From NCBI GenBank assembly GCA_903893485.1, contig CAITMK010000014.1:66144-130143 (forward strand): a DNA stretch of 64,000 bases. Reading direction: 5' to 3'. The notes under the pieces were generated by a model. The model was not told the DNA's origin. It ran no database searches and saw only the letters and a program-made list of their open reading frames with translations. This DNA comes from Candidatus Magasanikiibacteriota bacterium (lineage in GTDB: Bacteria > Patescibacteriota > Patescibacteriia > Magasanikbacterales > 2-02-FULL-50-9b). Both the position numbers and the translations under genes were made by a program. Numbering within the stretch: the first letter of the stretch is position 1; each line of letters starts with the position of its first letter. Positions 10,374 to 59,934 of the stretch are shown in pieces.

Positions 10374-10493
10374 AATAAAAAAATATGAATAATTATTTGC
10401 ACTATACCAAACGAAAAATTTCTGTCAAATAAAAAAACGCCGACAGCTCCCGTGGGGAAACTGCCGGACATGGGGCTTTGCGCGGTCGCGTGA

Positions 10494-10988
10494 TTAGCCG
10501 CCCTGCGCCTCTGCACTGCGCCGGATGAGAACCGCCTCGGTTGGAGGCATCCGCATCTCTTCGAGCAGCCGTTGCAGCGACACGTGGTTGATGCAATTCC
10601 ATGTGCTGTAATGGATCGCCACAATGCCGTAGTCGCGCACGCTCTGCACGACCTCCGCGTTTTCATCGACGACGACATTGACTTCAAGCTCCTGGCACAG
10701 CACCGCCTTCTTGGAATCGTCATCGACCACATGGACATTGATGAGCGACGCGGCGAAACCGTCGAGCCAATACTTGAGCCACTCCTGCAAGAGATCGGCG
10801 TCGAGCTGCTCGCGCCCCGGCTTGGTGACGAAAACAAGGTTAACTTGATGTGAGCGCACGGCCCACATCAGTGTCTCGATCGCTTTTGGAAAAAACGGCA
10901 CTTTGCCGAATCCCCCGCGTTCGAATGCCTCGATTTGCGCGCCGTTAAACAGCGCCAAAGTATTTGCCACACCAAATGCAATTCGCAT
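10494..10988 (-). CDS. Hypothetical protein with a degenerate HAD/5'-nucleotidase-like fold
   Basis: GGAGG SD; TTGACT-N17-TATGCT promoter. MRIAFGVANTL and K..LCQELEVNVVVDE resemble HAD motifs I, III and IV. Confidence 0.65.
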   Translation of the reverse strand: MRIAFGVANTLALFNGAQIEAFERGGFGKVPFFPKAIETLMWAVRSHQVNLVFVTKPGREQLDADLLQEWLKYWLDGFAASLINVHVVDDDSKKAVLCQELEVNVVVDENAEVVQSVRDYGIVAIHYSTWNCINHVSLQRLLEEMRMPPTEAVLIRRSAEAQGG

Positions 10989-11145
10989 GACACCCTCCAT
11001 GAGTTGTGAAACTCGAGAAAAAAGCATACCACAAAATGGCCCGAAAGTCAAGGGTAATAGCTGCTTTTTTGTTCAAAATATAAAAATAAAAACAGGCAGC
11101 AACTTTTTGCAAAGTGCTGCCCGGAGCGAGGACGACGCGATCGCG

Positions 11146-11901
11146 CTAATCGTCATACGCTACAGAAACCTTGGTTGAACTGAACTGCGCCTCGCGCTTC
11201 ATGTCCAGGATAAAGTCCACTGCCTCGCCGTTGCTGCGATACGAAAGCTCGGACTGGTTGCAATCTGCCACCGCGCGCAAACCATTTTGCACGGTCGTGC
11301 GCACCAGCAGGTTGGCATCCTTGGAATACTGGCCGTCGTTGATAACCTTCACACGGACCGTGGCGCCACGCTTGCCAAACACGCGGATCAGCGTTTCCGC
11401 GCCATCGTACGGACCTTTGGTAATTTGCCGCGGGCACATGTAATTGAGCACGTGCGGCGCATTATCCTTCGTCCATTCTGAGCGTGGAATCACCTGCGGA
11501 ATTTGCAACTCCGCAGACTTTTCGGACAAATGGAATGGCGCCCGCTCCGCATATTCCAGAAATTTCTCGAACGCGACATCTTGCGTCGCCGTGTCGGTTG
11601 GCGAGCATGCCATTTGCGCCGCCGTGCCGCCGTTGAACAGCTGCAATTCGCAGTACACGTCGTGGATCTGTTCTGCAGACGAGGCGGCCTCTGGAAGTCC
11701 AACCGCCACGGATGTCACCGCTTCAATTGCAGGCGTCGGGTCCGACGGCACAATGTTCGCGATGAGTTCCTGGCGATACACGATGCACGCAATGAGAACC
11801 GCCAACGCCGCAGAAATAAGCAGCGCGCGATCAACCTGCCGCGCGTTCCAAAACGACCGTCCGATTTCACTTACCGGAATTCCTTTTGGGAATTTTTTCA
11901 T
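11146..11901 (-). CDS. Hypothetical single-TM extracytoplasmic protein
   Basis: GGAGG SD; TTGACA-N17-TATGGT promoter; N-terminal TM helix. Confidence 0.7.
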   Translation of the reverse strand: MKKFPKGIPVSEIGRSFWNARQVDRALLISAALAVLIACIVYRQELIANIVPSDPTPAIEAVTSVAVGLPEAASSAEQIHDVYCELQLFNGGTAAQMACSPTDTATQDVAFEKFLEYAERAPFHLSEKSAELQIPQVIPRSEWTKDNAPHVLNYMCPRQITKGPYDGAETLIRVFGKRGATVRVKVINDGQYSKDANLLVRTTVQNGLRAVADCNQSELSYRSNGEAVDFILDMKREAQFSSTKVSVAYDD

Positions 11902-11929
11902 GAGTCCTCCAACTCGGTGAGGGGGAAAG

Positions 11930-12313
11930 TTACCCGGGCACCATACCGGATTTTGGGGGTTTTGTCAATGGTGAGAGGGCCAAAAACTTTTGCATTTCGA
12001 TACAGACTTTTTCGTAGAGATTTTTTTCTGAGACGCGGATTGCGCAGAGACGCTGCGTGGCCCAAAGACGGAATTGCATGCCACGAACTGCCCGGAAATT
12101 CCGGACAGTTGGATTTCGCTCTAATTCACCCTCTTCGTACAGTTTCTGAACATGTTCAGAAACAGTGCGTTTATCTTTTTGAAAAAGATCGACCATTTGC
12201 ATAAGACTCAAACACACCGTTTCGTCCTGCAAACGCACCTGAACCTGCAGCGATCCATCGGCAGCTTCGTATAAAATAATTTGGTTTTGATGTTCCCCGC
12301 CCTGAGACAACAT
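11930..12313 (-). pseudogene. Internally deleted RhuM (virulence_RhuM) family remnant
   Basis: QIILY..DG..VQVRLQDETVCLSLMQMVDLFQKDKRTVSEH..YEEGEL, RGMQFRLWATQRL and IRVSEKNLYEKV are joined directly, without the segments that normally separate them. Confidence 0.75.
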
Positions 12314-12547
12314 ATTTTTAAAATTAAAATGGCATGCAAAAACTATGCCCGAACAAAAACCGAATGTCAAGAGTGGTTATGCACTTTTTGTGCACAGAAA
12401 ATTCCGTGAAATAAAAAAACACCACACCGCTTGAGCATCCTGGGTAGGATTGCAGCAAGCAATGTGGCGTCACTCAACTCGTTGTGTGAGTGTGACCCTT
12501 TCGGATCATTGCAGAGTCGCCGTTACTGAGGCGCTACTGCGTTGGAA

Positions 12548-14464
12548 CTACTGCGGCGTGAACGTGAACTTCGCGGTGCCCTTCACGTAGCCGTTCAGGT
12601 TCTTCGGGCCAGAGATGCCGTCGAACCAGAGGCGCTGATTGGGCTGACCCGTGCCGCTGAAGCTGATCGCCGTCTGACCGCCTTGCAGGCAATCCGACGC
12701 CGTCATTTCCTTCGGCAAATCCGGCCCGCAATTGACGGTCTGCTGCAGCATCATGAGGATGCTGGTGGAAGGCGAAACCGTCTTGTCCGGCGCAATCGTG
12801 ACCGAGACCTTCACGCTTTGCGGCGCGCTGATCACGTACACTTGCTCCGGGCCAGTCGCGCCCGAAACCGTCATGCCGTCCGCGCACGTCCATTTGTCCA
12901 CCGTTTGCTTTCCGGCGGGCGCAGTGGTCGTGTCGACGTTTTTGCTAATGACGAGCGTGCCGCTGCCCGTGTAAGTAACGTAGACCACGTCGCTGCACAC
13001 ATCGCACGCGCCGCCTTCGTCGATCTGCAAGTTGCAGTTGTCGTCGAAGCCGTTGCAGACCTCCGGCGCATTCGGGTGGACGCTCGCCTTCGAGTCGTCG
13101 CAGTCCGTGTCGTCAAGGATCCACTTGCCCACGGGCGCGCATGCCAGCGTCGTCACGGCCGCGTTGCCGTAGCCGTCGCCATCGCCGTCCCAGTAAAGCG
13201 TCAACTTCACGCCCTCGTCGATCTGCTTGTCGCAGTTGTCGTCGAGGCCGTTGCAAACCTCCTTGGCGCCCGGGTAGATGGCGGCGTTGGTGTCGTCGCA
13301 GTCCGTCGAGTCGCTCACGTAGCCGGCCGGAGCCGAGCACGCTTGCTTGGTGCTGCTGAGGTTGCCGAACTTGTCGCCATCCGTGTCGGCGTAGTAGGTC
13401 GTCTGAACGCCCTCGTCGATCTGCTTGTCGCAGTTGTCGTCGAGGCCGTTGCAAACCTCCTTGGCGCCCGGGTAGATGGCGGCGTTGGTGTCGTCGCAGT
13501 CCGTCTTGCTCGTGACCTTGAAGTTCGCGTCTGCCGAGCACTGGCACGAACCGCTACCGGCGCCGTAAGTGTCACCGTCCACATCAGCGTAGAACCAGGT
13601 GCAGTTGAGCACGTTGCCTGCCGGATCGACGCTGCCATCGCAGTTGTCATCGACGCCCACCGTACTGCAATCGTCCATGATGCCCGGGTGAATCTTGGGA
13701 TCCAGGTCGTTGCAGTCATCGGAACTGGTCACGTAGTTGAGCGGCTCGGTGCAGCCCATCTTCGTGCTCGAGGAAAGGCCATGACCGTCGCCGTCGCCGT
13801 CGAAATAGAACGTCGTCTGGACGCCGTTGTCGATGACGGTGTCGCAGTCATTGTCCTTGCCGTCGCACGTTTCCTTGACCGGCAGACCCTGCGTGCACGT
13901 CGGATTGGGGTCCAGCGTGCCGTCCGGTTTGCATGCCAAAGCGTCGCAGGCGCATTCGCCGACGCCCACTTTGGTGCCCGGAAAGCTCGCCTTCGGCGGC
14001 GTCATGCACAAGAAGCGCGTGATGCCGTCGGTGGTTTCCAGCGGCACGGGAACCGAGTCCACGCACTTGCTGTTGGTCGAGGCCGCCACCGCCGCATCGC
14101 AGCCGCCGGACGAAGTGCTGAACGACGCGTCGTCGAGACCCAGCGGCGAAGCCGAGCAATCGAACGCCATCGCATCGAAGTTGTACGGGCAATCCGGCGC
14201 GAGCACGCACTTCTGGATGCTCTTGTTCCACGCCCACTTGGTGCGGTGAATCGGATCATCGGGCAGCGCGTCGCACAGCGTCTGGCTGATGGCCAGCTTG
14301 GCCGTGAGCGCGAACGATTGCGAGCCGAACGTCGCCGTCGGCGCTTGGGGCGCGGTTTTCACCGCATCGAGCACCGCAGAACCGCTCTGCGGTGCGGTCG
14401 GACCGGCACAGCCGATCAGACTTGCCAGCGCACAAAGCGCCAGCAAAGGGTTGAACTTCTTCAT
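12548..14464 (-). CDS. Cys-rich lipoprotein with MopE-related putative metal-binding repeats
   Basis: Lipobox LIGC; repeated DCDD..A.IYPGA.EVCNG.DDNCD.QIDEG and YxDxDGDGYG motifs; AGGAG SD. Confidence 0.88.
   Translation of the reverse strand: MKKFNPLLALCALASLIGCAGPTAPQSGSAVLDAVKTAPQAPTATFGSQSFALTAKLAISQTLCDALPDDPIHRTKWAWNKSIQKCVLAPDCPYNFDAMAFDCSASPLGLDDASFSTSSGGCDAAVAASTNSKCVDSVPVPLETTDGITRFLCMTPPKASFPGTKVGVGECACDALACKPDGTLDPNPTCTQGLPVKETCDGKDNDCDTVIDNGVQTTFYFDGDGDGHGLSSSTKMGCTEPLNYVTSSDDCNDLDPKIHPGIMDDCSTVGVDDNCDGSVDPAGNVLNCTWFYADVDGDTYGAGSGSCQCSADANFKVTSKTDCDDTNAAIYPGAKEVCNGLDDNCDKQIDEGVQTTYYADTDGDKFGNLSSTKQACSAPAGYVSDSTDCDDTNAAIYPGAKEVCNGLDDNCDKQIDEGVKLTLYWDGDGDGYGNAAVTTLACAPVGKWILDDTDCDDSKASVHPNAPEVCNGFDDNCNLQIDEGGACDVCSDVVYVTYTGSGTLVISKNVDTTTAPAGKQTVDKWTCADGMTVSGATGPEQVYVISAPQSVKVSVTIAPDKTVSPSTSILMMLQQTVNCGPDLPKEMTASDCLQGGQTAISFSGTGQPNQRLWFDGISGPKNLNGYVKGTAKFTFTPQ
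13209..13505. repeat. Exact 99-bp intragenic direct repeat (13209-13307 = 13407-13505)
   Basis: Both copies encode TDCDDTNAAIYPGAKEVCNGLDDNCDKQIDEGV with identical nucleotides, 198 bp apart. Confidence 0.9.
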
Positions 14465-14708
14465 CTTTGAAATCTCCTGTCAAAAAACACGATCGCTCTT
14501 TCGAGCCTCCCTCCCCACCGCGCACTCGCGCAGTAGGTAATTGTCGGCGCCGGGATAAAACGCCTGACGAATTCATCTCCTTATTGATGTCGTCAGGATT
14601 TTCATCTTTTAAAAAATAGGACCCCGGCAGCAGCAGCGTTCTTGCCACTGCTACCGGGTGAATCATTTCTCGTCTGATTCAGACGTTGCGCGGCTCGTTG
14701 GCCTGCGC

Positions 14709-16397
14709 TTACTTCTTGAACTTGGCGCACCAATCCACGACACCGCCTGGACCAAACATGTCCGGCAAAGCGATGTTGCTCTCGATGTCAAAGTCACCGG
14801 GACCCAGATCCACGAGCGGCACCAAAGCGCCGAGCGGATCTTGTACCGTCATGTACGGACCGCCAATCGCGTAGTGATCCTTGCCCTTGTTGAGCATGGA
14901 ATACGCGGTGCCGCCAAATTCGATCGGCGGAGTACCCTTGGCCGCGCCGACGTCGTACGCGTCACAAAACAGCTGCGCCGAGATCTTCACTTCGGGCGAG
15001 ATGCCCGAGATGTAGTTCGGAGCACCCGCCAGCTTGAAGTAGCCCCAGCTATTCCCGATAGTGGTCAGGATCATAGCATACGGCGCCGGCGCGTACAAGC
15101 CCATGATGTCCGAGCTTTCGCCCGTGCTCATCGTGAAAAACAGCGGCGTCCATTCACAGCCAACCTGCGAGTCGCAGGTGTCCAACGTCCAGTACTTCTG
15201 GTCGTTGCACTTGGCGGTGACCGTTGCGAAGGACCACGGAACAAACTGGCAGCCCAGCAGCGGCAGGCACGAATCGTCGGTGCACTTGTCGCCATCATCG
15301 CACGTCACGACCGTACCCTTGCAGGCAGCGGTCTTGTCGCAGATGTCGCCGTCTGTGCACAGATTGCCGTCCGTGCACGACTTGCCCACAATGGGCAGGT
15401 GCTTGAACACGCCGGTCTGCGGATCACACTTGGCGTCCTCCGTGCATTCGTTGCCGTCGTCCTCGAGCTTGGCCTCCGACAAGCACTTGCGCAGATCCGT
15501 ATCGCACGTCACCTGGATGCACAGATTGCCTTTGAATTGCGGCTGCGCGAGGCAGTCCGCATCCGTGTTGCAATCGTACGCCGGCAAACCTTCACAGGTG
15601 CCGGCCGTGCAAACGTCATTCTCCGTCGCCGGATTCCCGTCGTCGCACTTGCTGCCATCCTTCAGCTCCGCGGTCTGGCAGCCCAGCTTGGCGTCGCAGG
15701 AATCGGTCGTGCACGGGTTGCCGTCGTCGCACTTCAGGGTCGAACCTTTGCATGCGCCGACCGCACAAGTATCCGCTGTCGTGCATACGTTCCCGTCATC
15801 ACACGCCGCCGTGTTGTTCGCGTAGACGCAGCCCTTGGCTTTGTCGCACGAGTCATCGGTGCATGCGTTGCCGTCGTTGCAGGGCAACGTCGCGCCTTCG
15901 CACGAACCCGCCTTGCAGCTGTCGCCGGTGGTGCAGGCATCGCCGTCGTCGCACACGATTGCCGTGGCGATTGGTGACGCGACGCACTTGCCGAGCTTGG
16001 CATCACAGCTGCTGACGACGCACGGGTTGCTATTGTCGCAAACCACGGACACGCCCTTGCAGTAGCCAACGCCATCGCAGGCGTCGCCGGTGGTGCACGC
16101 GAGCTTGTCGTCGCACGCCGTGCCTTCCTTGGGATACGTCGCGCCTTTCGGCCGAACGCATTGCCCGGAAACGCACGTGAACTGGACATCGCATGTGGTC
16201 TTGTTCAGCGGCGCGCAATCCGGATTCGTTTCGCACAGCACGATTTGTGCCACAGAAACGTCCGGCGCGGGCGCCTGAACATCGACCTGAACGCTGCCGG
16301 CGTCCTCGGTGGGCGCGCTACCGCCCGAACCAGCTGCCTGCGTACAGCCCGCGACAATCGCGAACGGCACGCAGAGTTTGATCAAACGCGTGAACAT
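14709..16397 (-). CDS. Cys-rich lipoprotein with CDDGNxCTxDxC (Dictyostelium CTDC-like) repeats
   Basis: Lipobox VAGC; about a dozen CDDGNxCTxDxC-type units; GGAGGT SD. Confidence 0.88.
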   Translation of the reverse strand: MFTRLIKLCVPFAIVAGCTQAAGSGGSAPTEDAGSVQVDVQAPAPDVSVAQIVLCETNPDCAPLNKTTCDVQFTCVSGQCVRPKGATYPKEGTACDDKLACTTGDACDGVGYCKGVSVVCDNSNPCVVSSCDAKLGKCVASPIATAIVCDDGDACTTGDSCKAGSCEGATLPCNDGNACTDDSCDKAKGCVYANNTAACDDGNVCTTADTCAVGACKGSTLKCDDGNPCTTDSCDAKLGCQTAELKDGSKCDDGNPATENDVCTAGTCEGLPAYDCNTDADCLAQPQFKGNLCIQVTCDTDLRKCLSEAKLEDDGNECTEDAKCDPQTGVFKHLPIVGKSCTDGNLCTDGDICDKTAACKGTVVTCDDGDKCTDDSCLPLLGCQFVPWSFATVTAKCNDQKYWTLDTCDSQVGCEWTPLFFTMSTGESSDIMGLYAPAPYAMILTTIGNSWGYFKLAGAPNYISGISPEVKISAQLFCDAYDVGAAKGTPPIEFGGTAYSMLNKGKDHYAIGGPYMTVQDPLGALVPLVDLGPGDFDIESNIALPDMFGPGGVVDWCAKFKK

Positions 16398-16679
16398 GAT
16401 AAACCTCCGAAACAAGTTGAGACACTGTTGGCACACAAGAAAAAGAGCCGAGGAGCAACCGCGAGAAATAACCGTGAGGAATCTCCCCGCAGATCAACCC
16501 CCGACGCCAAAGAATTTGGAGAGGGAGCGACATATGAGAGTATCACAATCCCGCAACAATGTCAAGCCTCTAAAATAAAAAAAGACCCCCGAAACCAACC
16601 GCGCGTGATGCGTTGTTGGTCCGGGGAGTCGGTTGTGGTATTGGGCGCCGGTCGGCGATGCAATACGAGGGGGTGACCG

Positions 16680-18032
16680 CTAGAAGAAGCGATCGAGGAT
16701 GCGGTAGGCGTCGCACGTAAGTGTGCCGAACATCGCCGTCTTGCCCGTACCGGCCGGCAACGTACCGTTGCTGATCGTGTACTGGTTCGGGACGATGTAG
16801 TCGACCGTCGTCACGTTGTTCGGGCCCGTGGTAAGGACCTGAAACGCGTGATTCGTGCCGACTTTCTTGGTTGCCGACGTGCAGCTTGAGCCGATGTAGC
16901 CGGGCGAGAAGTCGCCGGCCGCCCACTTGATGTAGAAGCCCGCGCCGTTCGCGCTGCTGTTCACCTTGCTGCACCACTTGTTGCTCACGCCGACCTGGGT
17001 CATGTTGAGCGAGTCGCCGTCCAAGGACCAGATGCCGCCGTACACGAACTCGCCGTTCACGGAAACGATCTGATCATCGGCCTGCACGCACACTTTGTAC
17101 TGGCCGCCGCTTTGCGCCGGCGTTCCGGTGTGCGAACACGTGATCTTGCTGGTGTCCGTGGTGGGCGTGGTCGTGCCGGTGCACTGGTCGAGCGTCGCGG
17201 CGTTGGCGTCATCGCAGAGGAAATCCGCGCTGACGGTGGGGTCAGTGGTCGGCGCGCAGCCGATCTGAATCCCGTTTTGCCACTGGCACATGCCTTTCAG
17301 CATGGCCTGCTTCTGGACGCCTTTCGCGCTGCAGTAGTACGTCGGCGAACCGTCGCACAAGCTGGGATCCGAGCAAGCGAACACGCCATTCAGCGCGTTG
17401 CACGCGCCGGTGAGCGAGTTGCAGACCTGGCCCGCCGGGCAGCTGTTTTGCGTGCAGCTTTGCGGCGCCGTGTTGGGAGTGTTGGTGCACTTGAAGGTGT
17501 TCCAATCCCCCGTGCACGAATCAGTCGTGCTCGGATCGTTGTCGCTGCAGCTGTAGGGCTGCGACGGCTGATTCGAGTCGTACTCGCAGTACTGCCCCGC
17601 GCCCGTGCCGAAGCACATGCCCGTGAAAAAGTACTGCGTGGCCACGCCGGCATCACAATGACGCGACGTCAGCTGACAGGTGACCCCGTCGCAGACGTGC
17701 GCCACTTTGTTGGGATCCACCTGCGGCACCGAGCACACGCCCGTGTCGCAAATCTGGTTCCCGGTGCACGTGCCGCACGAGCCGCCGCAGCCATCGCTGC
17801 CGCAGTCGTGCGTGCCGCACTTGGGCGTGCACGCGTCGGCCGAAGCCGTCGCGTCCGTGCCGTTGCTGGTGTCCGAGTTGCTCGCATCCGCCGCCGCGCA
17901 GCTGGCGCAGTCCGTGGACAAACCCACAATGGGCTGGTCGGCAGGCTGGTCGACCGGGATGGCGCAGCCGGTGAAACCGGTGGCGCAGACCAACGCACAC
18001 GCGATGGCCAGAAACTTCTTGACGTTCAACAT
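16680..18032 (-). CDS. Cys-rich lipoprotein (myxobacteria-type CGxDGCGGSCGTC motif)
   Basis: Lipobox FTGC; CTPKCGTHDCGSDGCGGSCGTC; GAGGAG SD. Confidence 0.85.
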   Translation of the reverse strand: MLNVKKFLAIACALVCATGFTGCAIPVDQPADQPIVGLSTDCASCAAADASNSDTSNGTDATASADACTPKCGTHDCGSDGCGGSCGTCTGNQICDTGVCSVPQVDPNKVAHVCDGVTCQLTSRHCDAGVATQYFFTGMCFGTGAGQYCEYDSNQPSQPYSCSDNDPSTTDSCTGDWNTFKCTNTPNTAPQSCTQNSCPAGQVCNSLTGACNALNGVFACSDPSLCDGSPTYYCSAKGVQKQAMLKGMCQWQNGIQIGCAPTTDPTVSADFLCDDANAATLDQCTGTTTPTTDTSKITCSHTGTPAQSGGQYKVCVQADDQIVSVNGEFVYGGIWSLDGDSLNMTQVGVSNKWCSKVNSSANGAGFYIKWAAGDFSPGYIGSSCTSATKKVGTNHAFQVLTTGPNNVTTVDYIVPNQYTISNGTLPAGTGKTAMFGTLTCDAYRILDRFF

Positions 18033-18131
18033 GACAGACTCCTCAAGCAATAAGGCCGATTAGGCCGTGGGTGAAAAACAAACTGACACTGGAAAGGAAC
18101 GCAGAACTTCTGTGCGACGAATTACGTCGTA

Positions 18132-18227
18132 AACAAAAGCACTGAGTTCGCCTGACAAGCTGCGTGTTATGAAGGAGGGAGCATAACAGCTACTCGTCAG
18201 ACGAACTCAGCGCTCATGGCTTTTGTT
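18132..18227 (-). promoter_or_regulatory. About 95-nt hairpin in the 5' leader of the 16680 lipoprotein gene
   Basis: AACAAAAGC..CTGAGTTCG.CTGAC..TGTTATG / CATAACA..GTCAG.CGAACTCAG..GCTTTTGTT, just downstream of TTGACA-N17-GATAAT. Confidence 0.65.
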
Positions 18228-18363
18228 GTCCGGGATGCTATTATCAGATGCTTTATATTAGTTGTCAAGAAACGTCCTGTGGAAAAAAATCTCCGGGGTG
18301 GTCGACAAGCGTTATTGCTTGCCGACCACCCCTTCGTTGTTGCTCTTGCCGCCGGTTAGGTGA

Positions 18364-19335
18364 CTAGAAGCCGTACTGGATCCCGAACGTGACGCCGAGC
18401 ACCGGATCGAACTTGACGCCGTGGTCCAGGTTGCCCCGGAGGTCAAACGCGAAATTCGACTTGCCCATGAAAATCTCCGCACCCAGCGCCCCGCCGAACC
18501 GGTTTTCCGTCACATTGTGACTGAACCCGTTTTCAGCGATGCTGACCGCGTGGAAGCCGGCGTAGATCGCAAATTCGCGATGAAAATCGATCTTGGCCGC
18601 TGCCAGGTAATCGATCTCCGCGTGATTGTCGCCGCCGAAGGCCATGCGCACATCGAACTTGCCGTCCAGCCACTGGTGGCCGAACGATTCGATGCCGAGG
18701 CCAAAGCCACCGATGCCCGTCTGGTTCACGCCGCCGAAACCGGCGAGGATGAACTTCCACGAGGACGGCACGTTGGCGATCGGATTGACCCGGGGCGCCT
18801 GCGGCACGTACTGCTGCGGTTGCGGCTGCGGCGTGACCAGTTCCTTCCGGAGCTGCTTGAGCCCCGTCCACGCCGCCTGGGCGATGACCAAAGCCTCGCG
18901 AGCTTCGGACGCCGTCTGCAGCGTGTTGACCAGGATGCCGGCCTGCCGCGCCCGCATCAGCCGCAACGCGACGTCGTCGTCGTGATACTTGATCACTTCG
19001 ACGATGCGCGTGGCGGACACCACGCAACGGGGGTTGCGGAGCTGATCGTGAATCTTCTCGAGGGCGCTCACGCGCACGACGAGAGACGTGATCAGCTGCT
19101 GCGACAACCCGTTCGCACTCGCCTGCCCAGCCATCTGCTGGATCGTGGCGTTGCGCTCGGTCTTGGCCATGTCGGTCAACGTATCGACCGCTTTCGCCGC
19201 CTCCGCCCGCATCTCCGGAGAGAGCGGGCGATCGTCCGGCGCAGCGGGCGCCAAATTGACCTGCTGCGCAAACGCAGCCGGGGCCGAGACACAGAACATC
19301 AAGGTCGCCATCGCGACCGTCATCAACTTCTTCAT
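18364..19335 (-). CDS. Secreted protein with a helical N-terminus and a C-terminal outer-membrane beta-barrel-like domain
   Basis: Sec signal ending AFA; alternating amphipathic Gly/aromatic strands; ends GVTFGIQYGF (beta-signal-like); AGGAG SD. Confidence 0.75.
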   Translation of the reverse strand: MKKLMTVAMATLMFCVSAPAAFAQQVNLAPAAPDDRPLSPEMRAEAAKAVDTLTDMAKTERNATIQQMAGQASANGLSQQLITSLVVRVSALEKIHDQLRNPRCVVSATRIVEVIKYHDDDVALRLMRARQAGILVNTLQTASEAREALVIAQAAWTGLKQLRKELVTPQPQPQQYVPQAPRVNPIANVPSSWKFILAGFGGVNQTGIGGFGLGIESFGHQWLDGKFDVRMAFGGDNHAEIDYLAAAKIDFHREFAIYAGFHAVSIAENGFSHNVTENRFGGALGAEIFMGKSNFAFDLRGNLDHGVKFDPVLGVTFGIQYGF

Positions 19336-19588
19336 GACGAACTCCTACACAGTAAAGTGACCGCGAGGGCCACGAAAGAAACTACCAGTGAAAAGGGCGC
19401 GTGCTAAGTATCCGATCGGACACCTACCACTTCTGCTTTTGAGAGCATATCTGTACTGCCTAAAGCAACACGGACATGATCTTAAAATAATCGTCCTGGG
19501 GAGCGAAATCGTGGATTCGGCGGTTGCCTTATCACACTTCTTCGCTCCCCAAGGAGTTTGCGCCCCAGTCACTTAGGGGCATTTGGCG

Positions 19589-20275
19589 CTACGGCTGCCG
19601 CAGGAAGCCGTTCGCGCGCGCCTCGCCGTCGGCCCGCGCGCTCGCATACGCCTGATTCAGCGTGCGCAGCTCGCGGCACTGTGCCGGCGTCGGGTGCGGC
19701 TCGCCGTAGATCTGGCAGTCGCCGTCGCTCCGGGCAGCGCCGCGCTTGTCTTCGGACTTCGTGTGCGCTTTCGGGGCGGCGGGCTCGATCTTGATGACCT
19801 CGCCGTCGTCCTTCTTGTCGCCCGCGTCGTCGGACTTCACGTGTGCCTTGGCCTTGGCTTTCGCCTTGGCCGCCCACTCGCCCTTCCAGTTCTCCGTCGC
19901 GCCCTTGGTGGCGTCGTGGAGGCCCTTGGCGCCCAGGCAGTCCTGGTACGCAGCGCCGCACTTCGCGTTGGCCGCGTTGGCGAGTTCTTGCGCGCGCGCC
20001 TGGCAGATCTTGCCGCTCTCGCCGCAGTTGATGAACTCATGCGCCAAGATGTGCGCGACGAGATTCTTGCAGCTCGTCTGCACCTCCTCGCACGTCGAGG
20101 CCGTCGTCGGCGCCGGCACCGCAACCACCGCCGGCTTCGGCGGATCGTCGGTCGGCACTTTCACCGGGTCGACCTGCTTGGGGCAGTCCTTGCCGCAGGT
20201 CACCGTGGTGGTGCCGCACGCAGCAGCCGTCATCGCGACCAAAACCAGAACGCCAGAAACAAAAAGCTTCTTCAT
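19589..20275 (-). CDS. Hypothetical lipoprotein
   Basis: Lipobox AAAC; paired Cys; GGAGG SD; TTGACT-N17-TATTGT promoter. Confidence 0.8.
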   Translation of the reverse strand: MKKLFVSGVLVLVAMTAAACGTTTVTCGKDCPKQVDPVKVPTDDPPKPAVVAVPAPTTASTCEEVQTSCKNLVAHILAHEFINCGESGKICQARAQELANAANAKCGAAYQDCLGAKGLHDATKGATENWKGEWAAKAKAKAKAHVKSDDAGDKKDDGEVIKIEPAAPKAHTKSEDKRGAARSDGDCQIYGEPHPTPAQCRELRTLNQAYASARADGEARANGFLRQP

Positions 20276-20545
20276 TGCTTGTGCCTCCCCAATCGGTTAC
20301 TACCGTGGGATCAGTTGACCTTCCAACAATACGAACACCCCAGTGGTGACGCACGTTGTCCAGCCAAATTCAGAAAACAAACTATTCTACCAACTAATTG
20401 TACGGAACTGGAACTGTTGCCCCACGAGATAGGCTTGTGGCCGTCTCAATGTGACTTAATACAATATCACACTTTCCTGGAAAAGTCAAGGGGGTGGGGG
20501 CCATTTAGACCCTCACCCCCAAGAAATGCAAAAAATTATTAAAAA

Positions 20546-21148: not shown

Positions 21149-21149
21149 A

Positions 21150-22750: not shown

Positions 22751-22751
22751 A

Positions 22752-24190: not shown

Positions 24191-24238
24191 AACCGTTGAA
24201 AAAATATTTGGTTCAAGTATACTAGGTTTATCTAAAGT

Positions 24239-24691: not shown

Positions 24692-24692
24692 T

Positions 24693-25687: not shown

Positions 25688-25688
25688 A

Positions 25689-25997: not shown

Positions 25998-26075
25998 AGG
26001 ATAAAAATTTAAGAATTAATATCTGCGTTATATCAAAAAATATACGTGCTCGAAAGAGGGTGTCAAGGGTTCGAT

Positions 26076-28452: not shown

Positions 28453-28554
28453 AAAATTTGTGGATAAAAAAACACGCCCACCCGCCCCGCCATTACAGCA
28501 AGACAAGGTGAACGTCGTAACATGCGTTTCATTGCTGCATGTCAGAGCACATAG

Positions 28555-29175
28555 CTATAGTGAGGAGCGCCGCCAAAACTGCACCTGACCGCGCTCCTGT
28601 AAGAACCGCATGAATTCATCGCTGTGCGGCTCGTTCGACAACTCGTAACCCAGATCGCCAAAAATCGATGGTCCGCTGGGGCAAACGAGAGGCGCCGGTG
28701 CGTAACCTTTGACGAGGCTCGTGAACGTGTTGAATTCGATTGTTACCAGCCCGTCGCAAACAGCAAATTTCACATTACCGCTCAATCCGCCGGACTCATC
28801 CTTTTGAATTCTGCCCACTTCAAGTTCGGGCGGCCGCAGAGCTACAATCACGTGACGCATGTCACCTGCAGTCATACTAGCGATGACGACTTTCCCGCCG
28901 ACCGACGCGGACCGCAGCGCACGCTGCAGCACGTTGAAGCCGACCACCTCGTTCACGCGCGCCAGTTCAGCGCTTCCCCCGAGTTGCTGAACGGTCCGTA
29001 CGGCCTCTCGCGCAGATCGACGTTCGCGCAGTGTACGCCACAACTTACTTATACCAAGTGGATTTAGAAAATAGTTCTGGAAAAACATCGAGATCGGCGT
29101 CGTGAATTCGATAAACCAAAATCGCAACGCTAGCCGCTGCTCATCACCAAGGATCGTTTTAAGCCATCGCCACAT
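28555..29175 (-). CDS. Hypothetical protein (SD-led unit)
   Basis: AAGGAG SD; TTGACA-N17-TATGTT promoter; long 3' hairpin at 28466-28515. Confidence 0.7.
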   Translation of the reverse strand: MWRWLKTILGDEQRLALRFWFIEFTTPISMFFQNYFLNPLGISKLWRTLRERRSAREAVRTVQQLGGSAELARVNEVVGFNVLQRALRSASVGGKVVIASMTAGDMRHVIVALRPPELEVGRIQKDESGGLSGNVKFAVCDGLVTIEFNTFTSLVKGYAPAPLVCPSGPSIFGDLGYELSNEPHSDEFMRFLQERGQVQFWRRSSL

Positions 29176-29319
29176 GAGATTCTCCTTGCAAATTCAGAAA
29201 AAACATACCATCTTTTTACAAAGATGTCAACCTTGACAAAATCAATTTTCAATGCTTAAATACGAACGGCGTAATCAACGCTCACAACAAACAGACATTC
29301 GCTCTCACAGGAGATCCCA

Positions 29320-29689: not shown

Positions 29690-30319
29690 ATGCCGAAACT
29701 CGAAAAAATTCTCGGGGCGGCGGTGCCGCTCCTGACACTCGGCGCTTCGGTGCCACTGCTCATTGGCGGATGGCAACATCCGATCGAAATCAATTTGGCC
29801 GCGTACACGCTGTGGATCATGCTGGCAGCAATGCTCGCATACTCTATGTGGGCGCAGCACCAACCAACGTGGCGCATGATGCTTGGCTTTTTGCTCGGCA
29901 ACGTGAGCATGGTGACGCTTGGGCTGGTACGCGGCGGATACACATTCAACCTCGGCACATCTGAACTCATCGTGCTGTTCGGCATGGTACTCACCGTGGT
30001 CGTGTGGCTCACGGCTAGGCAAATCACCAGCTCAAGCAACCCGCGCATCCTGCTTTTGGGCGGAGTCACGATCGACGTGATCACCTACTACCCGCTGTTC
30101 AAGCAGTACCTCATGCAACACGAACCACCAACGGCGTGGATGAAGCTCGGCTGGTGCATGCAACTCACGGGCATAACGATTAACCTGTTCGTCGTGGAAC
30201 GCATTGTGCAAAAAATTCGGTATCACGAAAAGTCTTTGCCGAAGATTCTCGAAGAGTCGGCATTTTCGCTCGAGTGCTGCATTTTCATCTCGATGCTTCT
30301 GTGGCTGATCAACACGTAA
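29690..30319 (+). CDS. Hypothetical multi-TM membrane protein (SD-led)
   Basis: GGAGG SD before MPKLEK; about 7 hydrophobic helices. Confidence 0.75.
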   Translation: MPKLEKILGAAVPLLTLGASVPLLIGGWQHPIEINLAAYTLWIMLAAMLAYSMWAQHQPTWRMMLGFLLGNVSMVTLGLVRGGYTFNLGTSELIVLFGMVLTVVVWLTARQITSSSNPRILLLGGVTIDVITYYPLFKQYLMQHEPPTAWMKLGWCMQLTGITINLFVVERIVQKIRYHEKSLPKILEESAFSLECCIFISMLLWLINT

Positions 30320-30463
30320 CAACCGCGTGCGGCGCACCGCAACAAACCCAATCTCACGGCTCGCAAAGCGTGGGGGCGGGTCTTTTTTTATAAAAAAATC
30401 CCGCACCGCGAGTCACCAATTTCTGTGACATCCAAGCGGTGCGGGATTAAAATTTCTAACGAC

Positions 30464-30865
30464 CTACGAAACCAATGCGCACGGATGCAGCGTGAACCAA
30501 AACGTCAAATCCTTTTTCAGGTTCGCCACGAACTCCACGATGAATGCTTCCAGAAAAGCGTAATTCCGCGGCGTCCGCTCCTTTGGCAACGCCTGCTCAA
30601 ACCGCTCGCTCAGCATGCAAATCAGCACGAACTTTGCCGTGTCCATGTTCGGCTGTACGAGCACCAACGGGTAGTTGAAGCCCTGTTCAACGTAACTCAT
30701 CAGGGTTTCCGTGTCCAAATCCTTCGGGCGCTCGATAGCATATACCTCCATCTGCCGTTCAAGCGCCTGGGGCACGGACGAGTACGCATGTGCCAGCGTC
30801 AACACTTCCTTCAAATAACCTTCCAGTTCCGCTTCGATCACTCGAGCCGTATCTGCGTGTGACAT
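30464..30865 (-). CDS. Hypothetical protein (SD-led unit)
   Basis: GAGGT SD; TTGCTA-N17-TAAGAT promoter; 3' hairpin at 30392-30448. Confidence 0.65.
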   Translation of the reverse strand: MSHADTARVIEAELEGYLKEVLTLAHAYSSVPQALERQMEVYAIERPKDLDTETLMSYVEQGFNYPLVLVQPNMDTAKFVLICMLSERFEQALPKERTPRNYAFLEAFIVEFVANLKKDLTFWFTLHPCALVS

Positions 30866-31014
30866 AAATCCTACCTCGCGTGCCGGTCCGTTGGCTCGCA
30901 GCCACAATCTTATTTCAAAAAATCAGATTTAGCAAAAAATGTCAATATAAAAATAGGCAGCAGATGAGTCGCATCTACTGCCCAGATTGTCCTCCCGCGT
31001 TCGCGATTAGGCAA

Positions 31015-40952: not shown

Positions 40953-41221
40953 ATGTCTGATTCGAAGTAAGGGACTCGGAGGGCGAGCACGCAACCGAGC
41001 GTGCGCAGGTTGCATCGTGCGAGCCCAGGCCCGAAGGAGCGACATGGTTCGCGACTGAGGCGAGTCCCGCCACCACTCTCACAACTACCATATAAAATGT
41101 TTAACATTTTAATTTCAAATTGTTACACATTTTTTCTGCAATAAAAAAACACCCATCTCTCACCGCGAAATTCTGCGGATAAAGAGACGGGTGGTGGAAT
41201 ACGCTCACGCGCAAACCACTG

Positions 41222-41821
41222 TTATTCGGGGATGTTTTCCAAGTGCCAGTCGATGCTGCCATCATCAACTTCTTCCCCACCCGGAATCAGCATGGTGTAA
41301 TGGTAGTCCTGAGTGCTGACGAATCCATGCTCAACCACATTGTCAGGAATGAAAATCGGAGTGAGGCGAACGCGCACATCACACTGATCCGCATTGCAAA
41401 CCACAAGCAGCAGCGCGGCGTGCGTGCGATCGTTGCGATTGATCCATCGTTGCACTGGGGTGAGCACGTCACCATCCTGGTACAACCACGTCCTGCCGTC
41501 CTCGCTGGTTGTGCCGTGAGCAAACAAAACACCGATGCCCGAACGCTGCGTGCGTTCACCCCGAAGACGGACGTACTCCAAAAACTTTGGATCGATCTTC
41601 CGAACAAACATCTGGTGAATGTCTCGATCCAAGTAATCTTCAACGCTCTGTGATCGCTCAGTCGGCGAAGACTCTTTGCCAAGCATTTTCTGCACCGCTC
41701 CCACAAACTGCAGATCCTGCGGGCGCGGTGGCGTCGCAATTTCAAGCCGGCGCTCTGCTTCAATATCGCTGCTCACATGAACAAAAAACCCGGGGAATTC
41801 CTTACTTTCAACAACACGCAT
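41222..41821 (-). CDS. Hypothetical protein (SD-led unit)
   Basis: AGGAGG SD; TTGACA-N17-TAGATT promoter; 3' hairpin at 41143-41193. Confidence 0.72.
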   Translation of the reverse strand: MRVVESKEFPGFFVHVSSDIEAERRLEIATPPRPQDLQFVGAVQKMLGKESSPTERSQSVEDYLDRDIHQMFVRKIDPKFLEYVRLRGERTQRSGIGVLFAHGTTSEDGRTWLYQDGDVLTPVQRWINRNDRTHAALLLVVCNADQCDVRVRLTPIFIPDNVVEHGFVSTQDYHYTMLIPGGEEVDDGSIDWHLENIPE

Positions 41822-42011
41822 GTGCCCTCCTGTGTTAAACGTTGTCAGAGCGAGAGTTGATTGAAATTCAATCTAGCAAAAAGACGGACTTTTGTCAACC
41901 GTGGTATTCAACAAATACGCCGTCTTCTCTTCAATAAAAAAATCGCACCCACCCCTCACATCGTCATTAAGTTCATGATGGAAAGAGGGATGGGCACCGC
42001 GTCGCTTGCGA

Positions 42012-42785
42012 TCACGGGTAGGCTTGGACAAATTCAGCGATCAATTGGTCCAAGTGCGGAAGTAGTACGGCTCGCACCTCCTGATCCGCGCATTCTTCGT
42101 ACTTCGCAATCTGCACAGCAAGTTCAGTGAGCTTTTCGAGTCGCTGCACTTCAAAGGTCTGATCAATCAGCGCCTCTTCGCGCGCAGCGATTGCCGCCTG
42201 ACGTGCCACGACGATCTCCAGCGACGCAGACAGCGTCGACTTGCGATCATCGAACGCACGCTGCAGCTCGGCCGTGAGCTCCTCTGGCAAGCCAGAGATG
42301 TTGCGCTCATGCGACGCGGACAGCTCAATCAGCTGAGTCTGCAGACGGGCCTGCTTCGACTGCAGAGCCGCTGACTCATTCCGGAGGCTCGCGAGCTCGA
42401 CACTGCGCCGCTTTGCACGCCCTGCGGTGTCGCTAAGATGCGCGACCACCTCCTTGTGTGCAGGCGCGCGGCGCATGAAGTACAACCGAGCACGCGAAAG
42501 GCTGTCTGTCGCCCACGCGACCAGCCCCAAAGTAAGCGCCACCAAAGTAAAGGCGCTAAACAGACCGCCAATCCAGTGGGTCTCGGTCCCGTTGCACACG
42601 TCATTCCCTGAATGATAGTTCTGATAGCAATCAGGCACCTCATCCAGAAACATGTGCTTGATCACGTCCCACGCGTATGGTTGGATCCACACCATGGCCA
42701 AAAGAGCTGCGATAGCCCCAGTGACGATCCACACACCTTTGAGTGGGAACCAAACAACTGCTTTCTCGCGAATTTTAAGGTACAT
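42012..42785 (-). CDS. Two-TM plus coiled-coil hypothetical protein (SD-led unit)
   Basis: AGGAG SD; TTGACA-N17-TATATT promoter; 3' hairpin at 41936-41997. Confidence 0.75.
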   Translation of the reverse strand: MYLKIREKAVVWFPLKGVWIVTGAIAALLAMVWIQPYAWDVIKHMFLDEVPDCYQNYHSGNDVCNGTETHWIGGLFSAFTLVALTLGLVAWATDSLSRARLYFMRRAPAHKEVVAHLSDTAGRAKRRSVELASLRNESAALQSKQARLQTQLIELSASHERNISGLPEELTAELQRAFDDRKSTLSASLEIVVARQAAIAAREEALIDQTFEVQRLEKLTELAVQIAKYEECADQEVRAVLLPHLDQLIAEFVQAYP

Positions 42786-43008
42786 TTGCAACTCCTACAA
42801 AAATCGACTCAGTCAGAAGTGCGACGCGTCGTGCGCCCCCTCTCTCGCAATTACCCGTTCAGTGGGCTCGACTGGATGTGCTTTTTTAGCACAACAAAGC
42901 AATATAACACAAAAAACAAGATTTGTCAATCCTATATCAATCGCTATCTGACCGAAACGTATTGGTACAACGCCATTCACCCGTGCTACAATTACACAAT
43001 AATACGTT

Positions 43009-44548: not shown

Positions 44549-44608
44549 ATTTAATTAAATAAGTTTTAAAAATACCCCGTCACTGGGGTATTTTTAAATT
44601 CTTTGAAT

Positions 44609-44730
44609 AAAAAAATCGCACCCACCCTGTTGCCGTTACAGCATTGGATTGGGTGCGGCGCATTCACTCGAATGTACCACCTTCCTGCAATTGTTAAGTT
44701 GGGTGCCCAGAAACCCGATTTTCTGCTGGA
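44609..44730 (-). ncRNA. Candidate small RNA or empty cassette unit
   Basis: TTGATA-N17-TATCTT promoter (44737-44765), about 120 nt with no convincing ORF, ending in a cassette-type hairpin plus T7. Confidence 0.45.
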
Positions 44731-44839
44731 CCAAACAAGATACCATAAAAAATGGCGTGTATCAATCATGTCGACGTTATTAAAATAAATTAAAAAATCC
44801 ACCCTTCCGAGTGGATTTTTGAAATACTGCCCTGAATTT

Positions 44840-51914: not shown

Positions 51915-52172
51915 TCAATCATTGGTGATGTCTTTTCCATTTTCATTTACGACCTGGATAATTCCTACTGGGCAACATTGCGCGGCATATTTATTATCTT
52001 CAATTTCGATGTCCGCAATCTCGGCAACAAATACATCATTTTTTTGCACGGCGCGTTTTAAACACGCTTTGCCGTCTTCTGCATTCATTTCCCAGTTCCC
52101 TGGCGATGTTTCAACGCATGATCCGCATCCAATACATGCATCACGAAAATGAATTATTTTGCATTTGCTCAT
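51915..52172 (-). CDS. Ferredoxin
   Basis: CIGCGSC...CPVGII. Confidence 0.9.
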   Translation of the reverse strand: MSKCKIIHFRDACIGCGSCVETSPGNWEMNAEDGKACLKRAVQKNDVFVAEIADIEIEDNKYAAQCCPVGIIQVVNENGKDITND

Positions 52173-53410: not shown

Positions 53411-53510
53411 GGCCAAAAGATTAGTCCTTTTTTTGAAAATTGTCAATGAATAAAAACGGCGCGCAAACCCTGTGCCGTCTGGCATTGAGTTTGCGCGCGT
53501 AACAGCCTGC

Positions 53511-54119
53511 TTAGGGGCGAAGACAAACGCCCAAGATCGCGAACGCTGCCGCCGAAACGATCATGGTCGCCACGTTAACCCGGTCGAGCCACGGCCCATT
53601 TTGGTACCAAGGCAACTTCAGGAGCCGCAAGGGATGCGAGCCCAGAAAGATTACGAGCCACAGTCCGCTGCCCATGAGCACCAAATCGTGCACGGACCGG
53701 CCAGACGTTGCCGACGAGTAGAAAAGCAGCACCACCGTGATCACCGCACCCATGAACAGTGCGTGCATCCAGCCCGACAACGTTACGCGATGGTGCATGA
53801 CGTGCGCTTCGAACGCAGGGCTTTTGGCATACCACAACTGCGCAATCAAGCCGAGTGTGATTCCTGCCGTACCTGCGCGCCAGATGTTGTAGTTACTCCA
53901 CTGAGCATGGTACGTCCCGATGATGTACCCCATGAGCGGCGAGATGACGAGTAGGTCGCCCCACATTGCCAAATGTGCGTTCCACGGAATGCTGCGCGCC
54001 ACGTGATGGCGGTCCAACATTTGCCGCCACGAGAATGTACCTTCGATGTAAGAAAACAACCCGCCCCACATACACACCACAAAGAAACCGACTGCCCACA
54101 AAATTCCAACACTGTTCAT
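53511..54119 (-). CDS. Hypothetical multi-TM protein (SD-led unit)
   Basis: GGAGG SD; TTGACA upstream; 3' hairpin at 53452-53500. Confidence 0.72.
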   Translation of the reverse strand: MNSVGILWAVGFFVVCMWGGLFSYIEGTFSWRQMLDRHHVARSIPWNAHLAMWGDLLVISPLMGYIIGTYHAQWSNYNIWRAGTAGITLGLIAQLWYAKSPAFEAHVMHHRVTLSGWMHALFMGAVITVVLLFYSSATSGRSVHDLVLMGSGLWLVIFLGSHPLRLLKLPWYQNGPWLDRVNVATMIVSAAAFAILGVCLRP

Positions 54120-58629: not shown

Positions 58630-58698
58630 CAGAAAAGCGAAATTCTGCTACACTAGGCATCAATACGGTCGACTCTCAATCAAAACAAGCTTTCCAAT

Positions 58699-58902
58699 AT
58701 GACAGGTTCTATCAAGTCCCTTCCACCAGGCAAAGAGTTCGGCTTCATCAGCCAATCAAACGGCGACAAAGACGTGTTTTTCCACACATCTGAAGTTGTT
58801 GCTCCACTCGCATTCGCAGACCTCAAAATCGGCGATACAGTGACTTTTGAGCTTCAGGATTCTCCAAAGGGTCCTAAGGCAACTCAGGTTGCTCGCGCAT
58901 AA
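58699..58902 (+). CDS. Cold shock protein
   Basis: FGFI and DVFFH RNP motifs; KGPKATQV. Confidence 0.93.
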   Translation: MTGSIKSLPPGKEFGFISQSNGDKDVFFHTSEVVAPLAFADLKIGDTVTFELQDSPKGPKATQVARA

Positions 58903-59037
58903 TTGCACGACATCCCAAACAGCCGCCCTTCGGGGCGGTTTTTTGTTTGCATCAAAATTGACTAATGGCAGTAAATAGCGTAAAAAAGGTAAAGGGCAGC
59001 CGCCCACATATCCGAAAACCCAGCAAGGAGATCTTTG

Positions 59038-59814
59038 ATGAAATCGCACAATATTCTGCCCACGGGCTATCAGAGCCTACGGGAATTTTGGCGCGCGAGC
59101 GCCCTTCATACGGCAACGTGTGGTGCTCTTACCGATTTCGAAATCTGGAGCGTCAAGCGCCATCTGGACAACCACCAGACGTGCGTGGACTTTCAATGCC
59201 CGGTCATGAAAATCGATAAGTGGCTACTGCTACTTGATGCGTTCATTTTTGTTGGCTGCTCCGCGATTGGATTCGTAATCATTTCAGGATGGCTCCTGAT
59301 CGGATTGCCGATTGCAGGGATCAGCTTTTACGTCAGGGGGAAACTGATTCAAAGCCAACTGGCATACCATCGTAGTCAAGAAGCAGCACCACCCGGCAAC
59401 ATGGATACGATCCGCGCGCGAGGATTCGTGCAATGGGATATCCAGCAGATGCAAACCCACTGGGCATCAGTGCAAGCGTGGCACCGCGATGTGGAGCAAG
59501 ACCCGCTCAATCAGGCCAAGCTGCTAACGCATTCTGAGGACTTTACGGGGGTCGTAGAGGCCTATTTGAACCATCAGCGCGGTAAAGCCATTGCAGCCGA
59601 CTTCAACAGCCTGTACGAGCTGCACCTGGCTACCGTGAATTTGTACCAAAAATACACCACGGCCGCAGATCAGGCCGTGGCGAGCCGACAAAAGCTGGGC
59701 GAATTGGCTCCCGGTATTCATCTGAAAATGGTTGCGGTGCAAGTGGGCGCCATGCGTACAACACTGCGTCAGATGCGAGCAATCGCAAATCTGCCAATCA
59801 ACACATCCTTGTAA
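59038..59814 (+). CDS. Two-TM plus helical hypothetical protein (SD-led unit)
   Basis: AAGGAG SD; TTGACT upstream; 3' hairpin at 59819-59864. Confidence 0.7.
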   Translation: MKSHNILPTGYQSLREFWRASALHTATCGALTDFEIWSVKRHLDNHQTCVDFQCPVMKIDKWLLLLDAFIFVGCSAIGFVIISGWLLIGLPIAGISFYVRGKLIQSQLAYHRSQEAAPPGNMDTIRARGFVQWDIQQMQTHWASVQAWHRDVEQDPLNQAKLLTHSEDFTGVVEAYLNHQRGKAIAADFNSLYELHLATVNLYQKYTTAADQAVASRQKLGELAPGIHLKMVAVQVGAMRTTLRQMRAIANLPINTSL

Positions 59815-59934
59815 CAATATTCTCGGGGTTTGGTCAAAAGCCGAGCTCCGAGGATTTATTTTTTTAAGCCACAAAGACCTCTTGCGTAATTAGAAATAAT
59901 TTGATACAATTTGGCGGTAAAATTGAATAGGCGT

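Follow-up and report, generated by a model that had tools for sequence, protein, structure and literature searches.

The window examined here, a 64,000-nt stretch of DNA from a Candidatus Magasanikiibacteriota bacterium (contig CAITMK010000014.1, or C14:66144-130143 of genome G000), raises the question of why one set of its genes ends in long, bulged hairpins rich in G·U pairs, and what these hairpins do. The genes concerned are led by a Shine-Dalgarno (SD) sequence and are GC-rich at the third codon position. They make up about one-tenth of the genes of G000, in which most core genes have no SD. Sixteen such hairpins were singled out in an original prediction made from the window, which held that they close every SD-led unit and may do more than terminate transcription, acting as RNA tags or as folded recombination sites. 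The long hairpins are real and class-wide, but they are not one sequence family. They are very probably one-way intrinsic terminators, and near-identical copies behind unrelated genes suggest that they may double as short homology joints for gene turnover.

Patescibacteria are rich in orphan genes that turn over quickly and show few mobility enzymes. If the hairpins are joints, they would provide a concrete route of accessory-gene turnover in a cellular genome, like the promoter early stem-loops (PeSLs) of phage T4, and one that predicts testable breakpoints and circles. A class-specific 3' end is also a marker for finding the gene class, and a handle on why the class stays GC-rich and SD-led amid mostly SD-less core genes. 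No publication on these hairpins turned up in a literature search, most subscription journals being outside its reach.

The gene class

G000, the window's own genome, is 948 kb long and 98.85% complete; G002, G003, G004, G006 and G023 are related genomes. G003 was covered over 802 kb of about 1 Mb and G023 over 400 of 931 kb; generality beyond the present family rests on the latter, which belongs to another family of the order. Genes were called with our own caller (915 in G000), counted in the class if SD-led with a third-position GC content of at least 0.53, and considered stand-alone with a gap of at least 45 nt. A hairpin was called at −12 kcal/mol or below plus a T-tract, outside strongly coding stretches, and the search would thus miss hairpins deep inside called genes. 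In the window, the automated caller overlooked five real hairpins, at 14611, 18283, 19484, 53452 and 28466, the last through a mis-called gene.

The promoter pattern TTGAC-17-TAnnnT is found at 53 of 95 class genes, and all of these 53 genes begin more than 12 nt away from that box's −10 element. Lys, Glu and Gln codons end in G at a frequency of 0.58 in the class and 0.23 in the most conserved core genes. The 16S rRNA of G000 retains its anti-SD. Pfam matches are few, in 11 of the 77 class proteins scanned (the class has 113) and 2 of 15 in the window. The class includes purine enzymes, an adenylosuccinate synthetase and a nucleoside phosphorylase (G000:C8:13583-16539 and C3:25375-26260). The called tRNA set of G000 has Arg(GCG), Ile(TAT), one Pro and one Lys species.

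Long hairpins at the 3' ends

All 16 hairpins are present where predicted and fold on the strand from which their unit is read; 14 lie on the minus strand and those at 30346 and 59819 on the plus strand. Measured against dinucleotide shuffles, 15 of the 16 fold with z ≤ −2.1, the remaining one being 30346 (z = −0.75). The backbone terminators, described in the prediction as short and near-perfect, are so in all four cases (10026, 35686, 40921 and 51713), with an A-tract on the 5' side.

Across G000, a hairpin with T-tract follows 73 of 83 stand-alone class genes, compared with 37 of 227 core genes (Fisher p 7e-32), and the corresponding counts in G003 are 64/75 and 40/246. These counts show the hairpins to be class-specific. 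The claim that every SD-led unit is closed in this way stands for about 88% of them by the automated call, but the 44609 hairpin ends a unit that has no open reading frame (ORF) rather than an SD-led gene.

The stems also differ in shape. In G000 the median stem is 14 bp in the class and 9 bp in the core, with a mean of 1.77 versus 0.57 G·U pairs, and 5' A's are scarcer beside class hairpins. Perfect stems are rare in the class (3/78 in G000, 0/60 in G003, 0/31 in G002), compared with 15/40 for the G000 core. The distance from stop codon to stem is the same for class hairpins (median 20 nt) and core terminators (p 0.70), which rules out a different distance as a sign of a separate expression machine. 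Where units follow each other in tandem, no more than 20 nt separate the T-tract from the promoter motif of the following unit in 18 of 44 cases. The commonest loop, GAAC or GAACT, occurs in 11 of 138 hairpins of G000 and G003.

Probable one-way terminators

A one-way intrinsic (Rho-independent) terminator consists of a GC-rich stem plus a U-tract. When folded as RNA, 58 of 78 hairpins are more stable on the transcript strand and 13 on the opposite one, the strand medians being −24.1 and −19.2 kcal/mol; when folded as DNA, the gap between the strands nearly closes (−11.6 versus −10.9). The stem at 28466 had been credited with about eight G·U pairs that form on the transcript strand alone; seven were counted, and the strand bias is indeed strong (−25.2 versus −9.0). 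The longest perfect Watson-Crick run is 3–7 bp in 58 of the 78 stems.

Among 16 pairs of homologous hairpins, pairing survives at 40 of the 61 base pairs that have changed, and at 16 of the 22 with a double change; these counts are inflated by the choice of pairs for likeness and folding. A five-member hairpin family shows two-sided changes at four pairs, with a covariation score reached by 1 in 500 shuffles (relatedness uncontrolled). Two separate hairpins are kept at all five convergent pairs of class units. No Rho_N match, and hence no Rho, was found in the genome.

Because of the transcript-strand folding, the G·U pairs, the compensatory changes and the lack of a detectable Rho, one-way intrinsic termination is the most likely function, and the class hairpins would with high confidence be assigned to it on these features. 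They share with known intrinsic terminators a GC-rich stem downstream of the gene with a U-tract directly behind it, as well as transcript-strand G·U pairs and compensatory changes. Unlike them, the stems are longer (median 14–16 bp), almost never perfect, tied to one gene class and copied behind unrelated ORFs. The hairpin would also shield the mRNA 3' end from PNPase, for which there is a weak match at its cut-off; RNase R/II was found in none of nine genomes.

Hairpins shared by unrelated genes

When all hairpins were compared with each other, 22 pairs scored at least 32, versus one for pair-shuffled stems. A score of at least 40 was reached in G000 by 5 of the 26 pairs lying on the same strand and no more than 3 kb apart (the pairs are not independent), and by 0/19 near opposite-strand pairs, 0/91 at 3–15 kb and 0/3,869 far pairs. 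Four of the five twins have ORFs that cannot be aligned, and the fifth pair is paralogous. In three twins the hairpin is 90–97% identical, while identity in the 15 nt upstream (0.33–0.53) and past the T-tract (0.30–0.43) is at background. PurA (PF00709) and its unrelated 485-aa orphan neighbor have a common 3' end, from the stop codon through the spacer to the hairpin. G002 and G023 likewise contain tandem twins whose ORFs are dissimilar. That the hairpins are more than generic terminators, as the prediction proposed, is thus supported by twin hairpins flanking unrelated ORFs. Hairpins are reused across unrelated genes, by a mechanism that is inferred.

Comparison with G003 reveals two slots that hold one unit in that genome and two units with twin hairpins in G000. 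In the first, the G003 T-tract meets the TTGACA of the core gene directly, and G000 has its extra units at that junction. In the second, the junction is inside the −35 region, and the G003 promoter looks like a hybrid of the two in G000. These slots support the predicted gain and loss of whole units with breakpoints at the hairpin or T-tract.

ORF and hairpin are also swapped independently. The 199-aa gene at 41222-41821 is 84% identical to its G003 copy. The match begins at the −10 box and extends as far as the stop codon, after which the G003 copy carries a different hairpin, of the type found at 44609. This type has three unlinked copies in G003, which are 94–98% alike, follow ORFs of 200, 105 and 131 aa, and resemble each other only from the stem foot to the T-tract. 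In G002, a hairpin homologous to the one at 10431 follows the orthologue of the 638-aa gene. The two hairpin copies on contig C12 of G000 are more alike than either is like its counterpart in G003.

Within the window, the apex UGCUG-UAA-YGGC reported for the 28466 and 44609 hairpins is common to both, and the 53452 hairpin joins them in what is here called family X. The pair 44609/53452 is the sole window pair above the 95% null maximum. The 22-nt identity between 41933 and 44606 is exact and has just two copies in the genome, but it is marginal without its A/T tract, which supplies 10 of the 22 letters. Of shuffled pairs, 0.9% attain this pair's stem-only score of 22, which amounts to about one expected among 120 pairs. 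The reported likeness between 11088 and 30949 is at chance level, outside the top ten window pairs. A covariance model of family X, run against 61 genomes, scored strongly for its six training copies only (next best E 1e-5), and family X therefore appears local to G000 and G003. An exact 19-nt hairpin pattern gave 20 matches in a genome contig database, none titled Patescibacteria, which were taken as chance; hairpin patterns had no match in metagenome and viral contigs.

Terminators as possible joints between units

Since near-identical hairpins stand behind unrelated genes, they are likely also joints for gene addition or swapping; that terminators double as short homology joints for gene turnover is given slightly better than even chances here. 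In the proposed mechanism, duplicated hairpins would act as short homology joints between promoter-gene-hairpin units, allowing whole units to be gained, by duplication or insertion, as well as lost or swapped. DNA taken up via ComEC would be recombined by RecA, with one end anchored in a conserved flank or a hairpin and the other end illegitimate or micro-homologous. Gene conversion would keep neighboring hairpin copies alike. No dedicated recombinase is proposed. RecA is present, and ComEC is found in 9/9 genomes. Saccharibacteria are naturally competent, according to the accessible part of PMC10633639.

The simplest rival is that the hairpins are ordinary terminators and nothing else. The GC-rich make-up of the class would give long G·U stems, and twins would be tandem duplications in which the ORF has diverged and the stem has been constrained, with no part in gene movement. 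This is judged unlikely, though it is the strongest of the alternatives. Class ORFs evolve very fast: reciprocal G003 hits were obtained for 18 of 112 class genes (median 39%) and for 339 of 563 core genes (63%), so that duplication and divergence explain part of the pattern. The ORFs of two twin pairs are paralogues at about 34%, the holA-polA slot duplicates the −35 region along with the hairpin, and the hairpins share neither bulge nor loop and keep the stop-to-stem distance of core terminators. Yet PurA and its neighbor are non-homologous with a common 3' end, the three dispersed G003 copies stand behind different ORFs, and the C12 copies resemble each other more than their counterparts. 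Unpaired and paired positions are also conserved to much the same extent (130/181 versus 195/256 aligned pairs).

Several observations weigh against a role as joints. An alignable hairpin is kept in 4 of 33 slots relative to G003 (a further 4 ran off the end of a contig) and in 0 of 16 relative to G002. Most neighboring pairs in G000 (21/26) share no hairpin, the tested neighbors in the 10–20 kb array of the window are unshared (scores 10–14.5), and G003 has twins in 1 of 16 neighboring pairs, that pair being paralogous. Two of the five G000 twins extend into the spacer and one has paralogous ORFs, all of which plain tandem duplication explains. ORFs of the same length (305/306 aa and 213/213 aa) cannot be aligned even where their hairpins and promoters are related, so that swapping can be mimicked by very rapid divergence of the ORFs. 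A short two-way terminator is likewise twinned (97%) around an AT-rich 496-aa gene (G000:C12:20761-22391), and duplication is therefore not special to long hairpins. About 40 nt is also short for RecA. Finally, among the joints listed (15 of 46) for lake contigs over 10101-30100 of the window, all lie in Cys-rich repeats and none at a hairpin, assembled contigs being prone to drop rare variants; the same 15 of 46 joints, from contigs only, include no excised mini-circles or excisions. The twin at C12:20761-22391 lies after an rpoC-like gene, and the corresponding G003 slot holds a GC-rich unit.

The U32 peptidase gene (52126-53446) is 80% and the region of the 199-aa gene (41225-41883) 84% identical to G003, with the core at about 70%. 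Such likeness above that of the core suggests recent exchange between the two lineages. The 199-aa protein had no match in metagenome and viral contigs, and hence no phage vector is seen.

The closest described system to hairpins acting as joints is the PeSL of T4-type phages. With PeSLs as described in PMC2839356 and PMC4122927, the two have in common an intergenic terminator hairpin adjoining a strong sigma-70 promoter and an SD, orphan ORFs that occupy variable positions among conserved genes with no dedicated integrase invoked, and one-copy versus two-copy topologies between relatives, here in the two slots of G000 and G003. However, the PeSL motif in these sources is about 100 bp long and repeated about 50 times, while the hairpins here are about 40–50 nt and form local twins or small families. 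They lie in a cellular chromosome and not a phage, no mini-circles were seen in the contigs, and the promoter spacers of twins are mostly unrelated, being unalignable or alike only at −35. The system thus resembles PeSLs in topology but is not one, as it has no genome-wide 100-bp motif.

A mechanism of the required kind, homology-facilitated illegitimate recombination, is described for competent bacteria in PMC3240628. By combining one homologous anchor with one illegitimate joint, such recombination can insert a gene and leave the terminator in two copies, and RecA and ComEC are at hand; the anchors here would be very short if they did not come from flanking core genes.

Folded recombination sites as a rival reading

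A further possibility is that the hairpins are folded single-stranded DNA sites, similar to the attC sites of integrons or to repetitive extragenic palindromes (REPs). Both the insertion of genes and the duplication of the hairpin would then be the work of a dedicated but unrecognized recombinase or nuclease. The precise hairpin-delimited repeats, the ORF-less shell at 44606-44765 and the dispersed, near-identical G003 copies would fit such sites. attC sites are recognized by R''/R' boxes with the consensus RYYYAAC ... GTTRRRY. This consensus was found in 1 of 88 3' regions on each strand, and the first stem interruption is spread over 2–18 pairs and absent in 36 of 138 stems, so that there is no fixed bulge. 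There is no integron integrase in G000, and the sole tyrosine recombinase found with a catalytic-domain model is Xer-like and of housekeeping type, beside a galU-like gene. The strand asymmetry is far greater in RNA than in DNA folding, and the attC analogy drawn in the prediction fails.

The same follows from a direct comparison with the accessible part of PMC2727003, in which the bottom strand of attC is the recombination substrate. Both elements are long, imperfect palindromes of variable sequence, located 3' of single orphan ORFs in tandem arrays. However, the present units have their own promoters and a U-tract and lack R boxes, a fixed extrahelical base and an integrase, and it is the transcript (top) strand that folds better.

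REP elements associated with REP-associated tyrosine transposases (RAYTs) form one dispersed palindrome family accompanied by a Y1 transposase. The genome has no Y1 transposase and no single dispersed palindrome family, and does not match this type of element. Nor does the 98.85% complete genome have a Cas1, the integrase that duplicates repeats in the manner of clustered regularly interspaced short palindromic repeats (CRISPR). The short perfect Watson-Crick runs noted above likewise speak against folded DNA sites. Taken together, such sites have a slim chance of being the explanation.

Two candidate enzymes were considered and rejected. One is an SD-led Xer-like orphan of the class with an integrase N-terminal domain (G000:C2:22254-23298). 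It has no recognizable catalytic motifs, and neither the 60 related genomes searched nor the protein database contained a homologue; it is possibly a DNA-binding decoy. The other is the only reverse transcriptase of the genome, which looks like the type found in diversity-generating retroelements (DGRs). At G000:C4:42100-43600, the 3' end of a GC-rich 215-aa gene recurs as a template-like repeat ahead of the enzyme, and the locus is likely a DGR remnant with an N-terminally truncated reverse transcriptase. As a copier it was dismissed, as it looks truncated and the third-position bias of the class lowers A and T, not A alone.

Possible RNA tags and export

The hairpin, together with an A/C tract in some lineages, could instead be a 3' tag for protein binding, storage or export to a host that reads SDs and GC-rich mRNAs. 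The class does differ from the core at both ends, with its own promoter and leader and its G-ending codons. In G023, an A/C-only tract follows the stop codon in 14 of 21 GC-rich genes and 13 of 334 others, mostly directly before the hairpin, and a VirB4-like ATPase is found in 9/9 genomes. The tract (12–25 nt in G023:C1, often with a weak U-tract, e.g. after the genes at 111859, 187009, 249726 and 312195) is weak in G000 and G003, with 7 observed versus 3.6 expected in G000. A 12-letter A/C pattern is common in G023 and G050 (10 each, among 81 genomes), but it scores as often when read backwards in G023, as fits an unstructured spacer better than a motif.

The hairpins of G000 and G003 have neither loop nor stem sequence in common, nor a common bulge, and no shared recognition or export tag is evident. 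The bacterium keeps its own anti-SD. It also has Lgt and LspA, so that a lack of lipoprotein processing, which would have pointed to expression in the host, is rejected, and ProQ was found in none of nine genomes. The type IV secretion system of Saccharibacteria, in the accessible part of PMC10633639, is without recognizable coupling and relaxase proteins. A 3' tag is accordingly regarded as improbable. In its boldest form, about one-tenth of the genes would be a second transcriptome for the ribosomes of a GC-rich host; the hairpin and A/C tract would stabilize the mRNAs and route them via the VirB4-type machine, and new cargo would join by copying a resident hairpin, in the manner of integrase-free cassettes. 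RNA export is a low-odds reading, and this version of it is more doubtful still.

Units of the window

The units and terminators of the window are listed in Table 1.

Table 1. Hairpin-ended units of the window and a backbone terminator for contrast (SD as noted; aa, amino acids)
Feature	Position	Strand	Promoter and leader	ORF	Hairpin	Remarks
Backbone terminator	10026..10056	.			short, perfect, two-way	others near 35686, 40921, 51713
Unit	10431..11051	-	11023-11051, GGAGG SD	10494-10988, 164 aa, orphan	10440-10467	
Unit	11080..11968	-	11940-11968, SD	11146-11901, 251 aa, orphan	11093-11123	T-tract
Unit	12411..14464	-		12548-14464, 638 aa, Cys-rich, PF11617	12420-12469	T-tract
Unit	14609..16565	-	16537-16565, SD	14709-16397, 562 aa, Cys-rich, PF00526	~14623-14659	T-tract
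Unit	16574..18268	-	18238-18268, SD	16680-18032, 450 aa	16584-16630	T-tract
Unit	18280..19335	-		18364-19335, 323 aa	~18295-18332 (z -7.7)	tail TTTTTTCCACAG
Unit	19482..20489	-	20461-20489, SD	19589-20275, 228 aa	long, bulged, within 19484-19555	weak T-tract
Unit	28464..29230	-	29202-29230, SD	28555-29175, 206 aa	~28473-28515, G.U-rich, family X	T-tract
Unit end	29690..30392	+		29690-30319, 209 aa	30346-30381, weak	
Unit end	30390..30865	-		30464-30865, 133 aa	30399-30446	T-tract
Unit end	30944..31860	-		31015-31860, 281 aa	30954-30984	T-tract abutting TTGACA
Unit	41140..41898	-	41870-41898, SD	41222-41821, 199 aa	41150-41193	beside tRNA-Asp
Unit	41933..42929	-	42901-42929, SD	42012-42785, 257 aa	41945-41997	
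ORF-less unit	44606..44765	-	44737-44765, ~100-nt leader with SD-like AGGAAGG		44617-44657, family X	T-tract
Unit end	53449..54119	-		53511-54119, 202 aa, membrane-type	~53459-53499, family X	
Unit end	59038..59866	+		59038-59814, 258 aa	59819-59855	T-tract; upstream of tRNA-Ser

The T-tract of the first unit, at 10431, continues into the TTGACA of the next promoter, and that of the 53449..54119 unit abuts the TTGACA of the U32 peptidase gene, upstream of which G003 has no family-X hairpin. In the 12411..14464 unit, small hairpins in the 3' untranslated region precede the terminal one, and no promoter was located by the pattern used. The units ending at 30392 (plus strand) and 30390 (minus strand) are convergent, each with its own hairpin. 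Hairpins related to that of the 41933..42929 unit follow ORFs unmatched to the 257-aa ORF in G003 and G002. The ORF-less unit at 44606..44765 is either an empty shell or a small RNA.

The tail of the 18280..19335 unit recurs at the same slot in G002 and G006. The T-tracts at 28456-28464 and 18279-18290 continue into TTATCCACA or TTTTCCACAG, which we take to resemble a DnaA box; the second is kept in G002 and G006. Inside the unit array lies an AT-richer remnant (11930-12397) with 42% identity over 157 aa to a longer G003 gene and short matching stretches in G002, G004 and G006. It presumably resembles a RhuM/Fic-type N-terminus.

At gathering score, Rfam matches in the window are limited to the tmRNA and two tRNAs, and the hairpins match no described RNA family. 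Structured repeats are found after the tmRNA (27790-27870) and after tRNA-Asp (40955-41075), the latter of which matches several tRNA-linked places in relatives.

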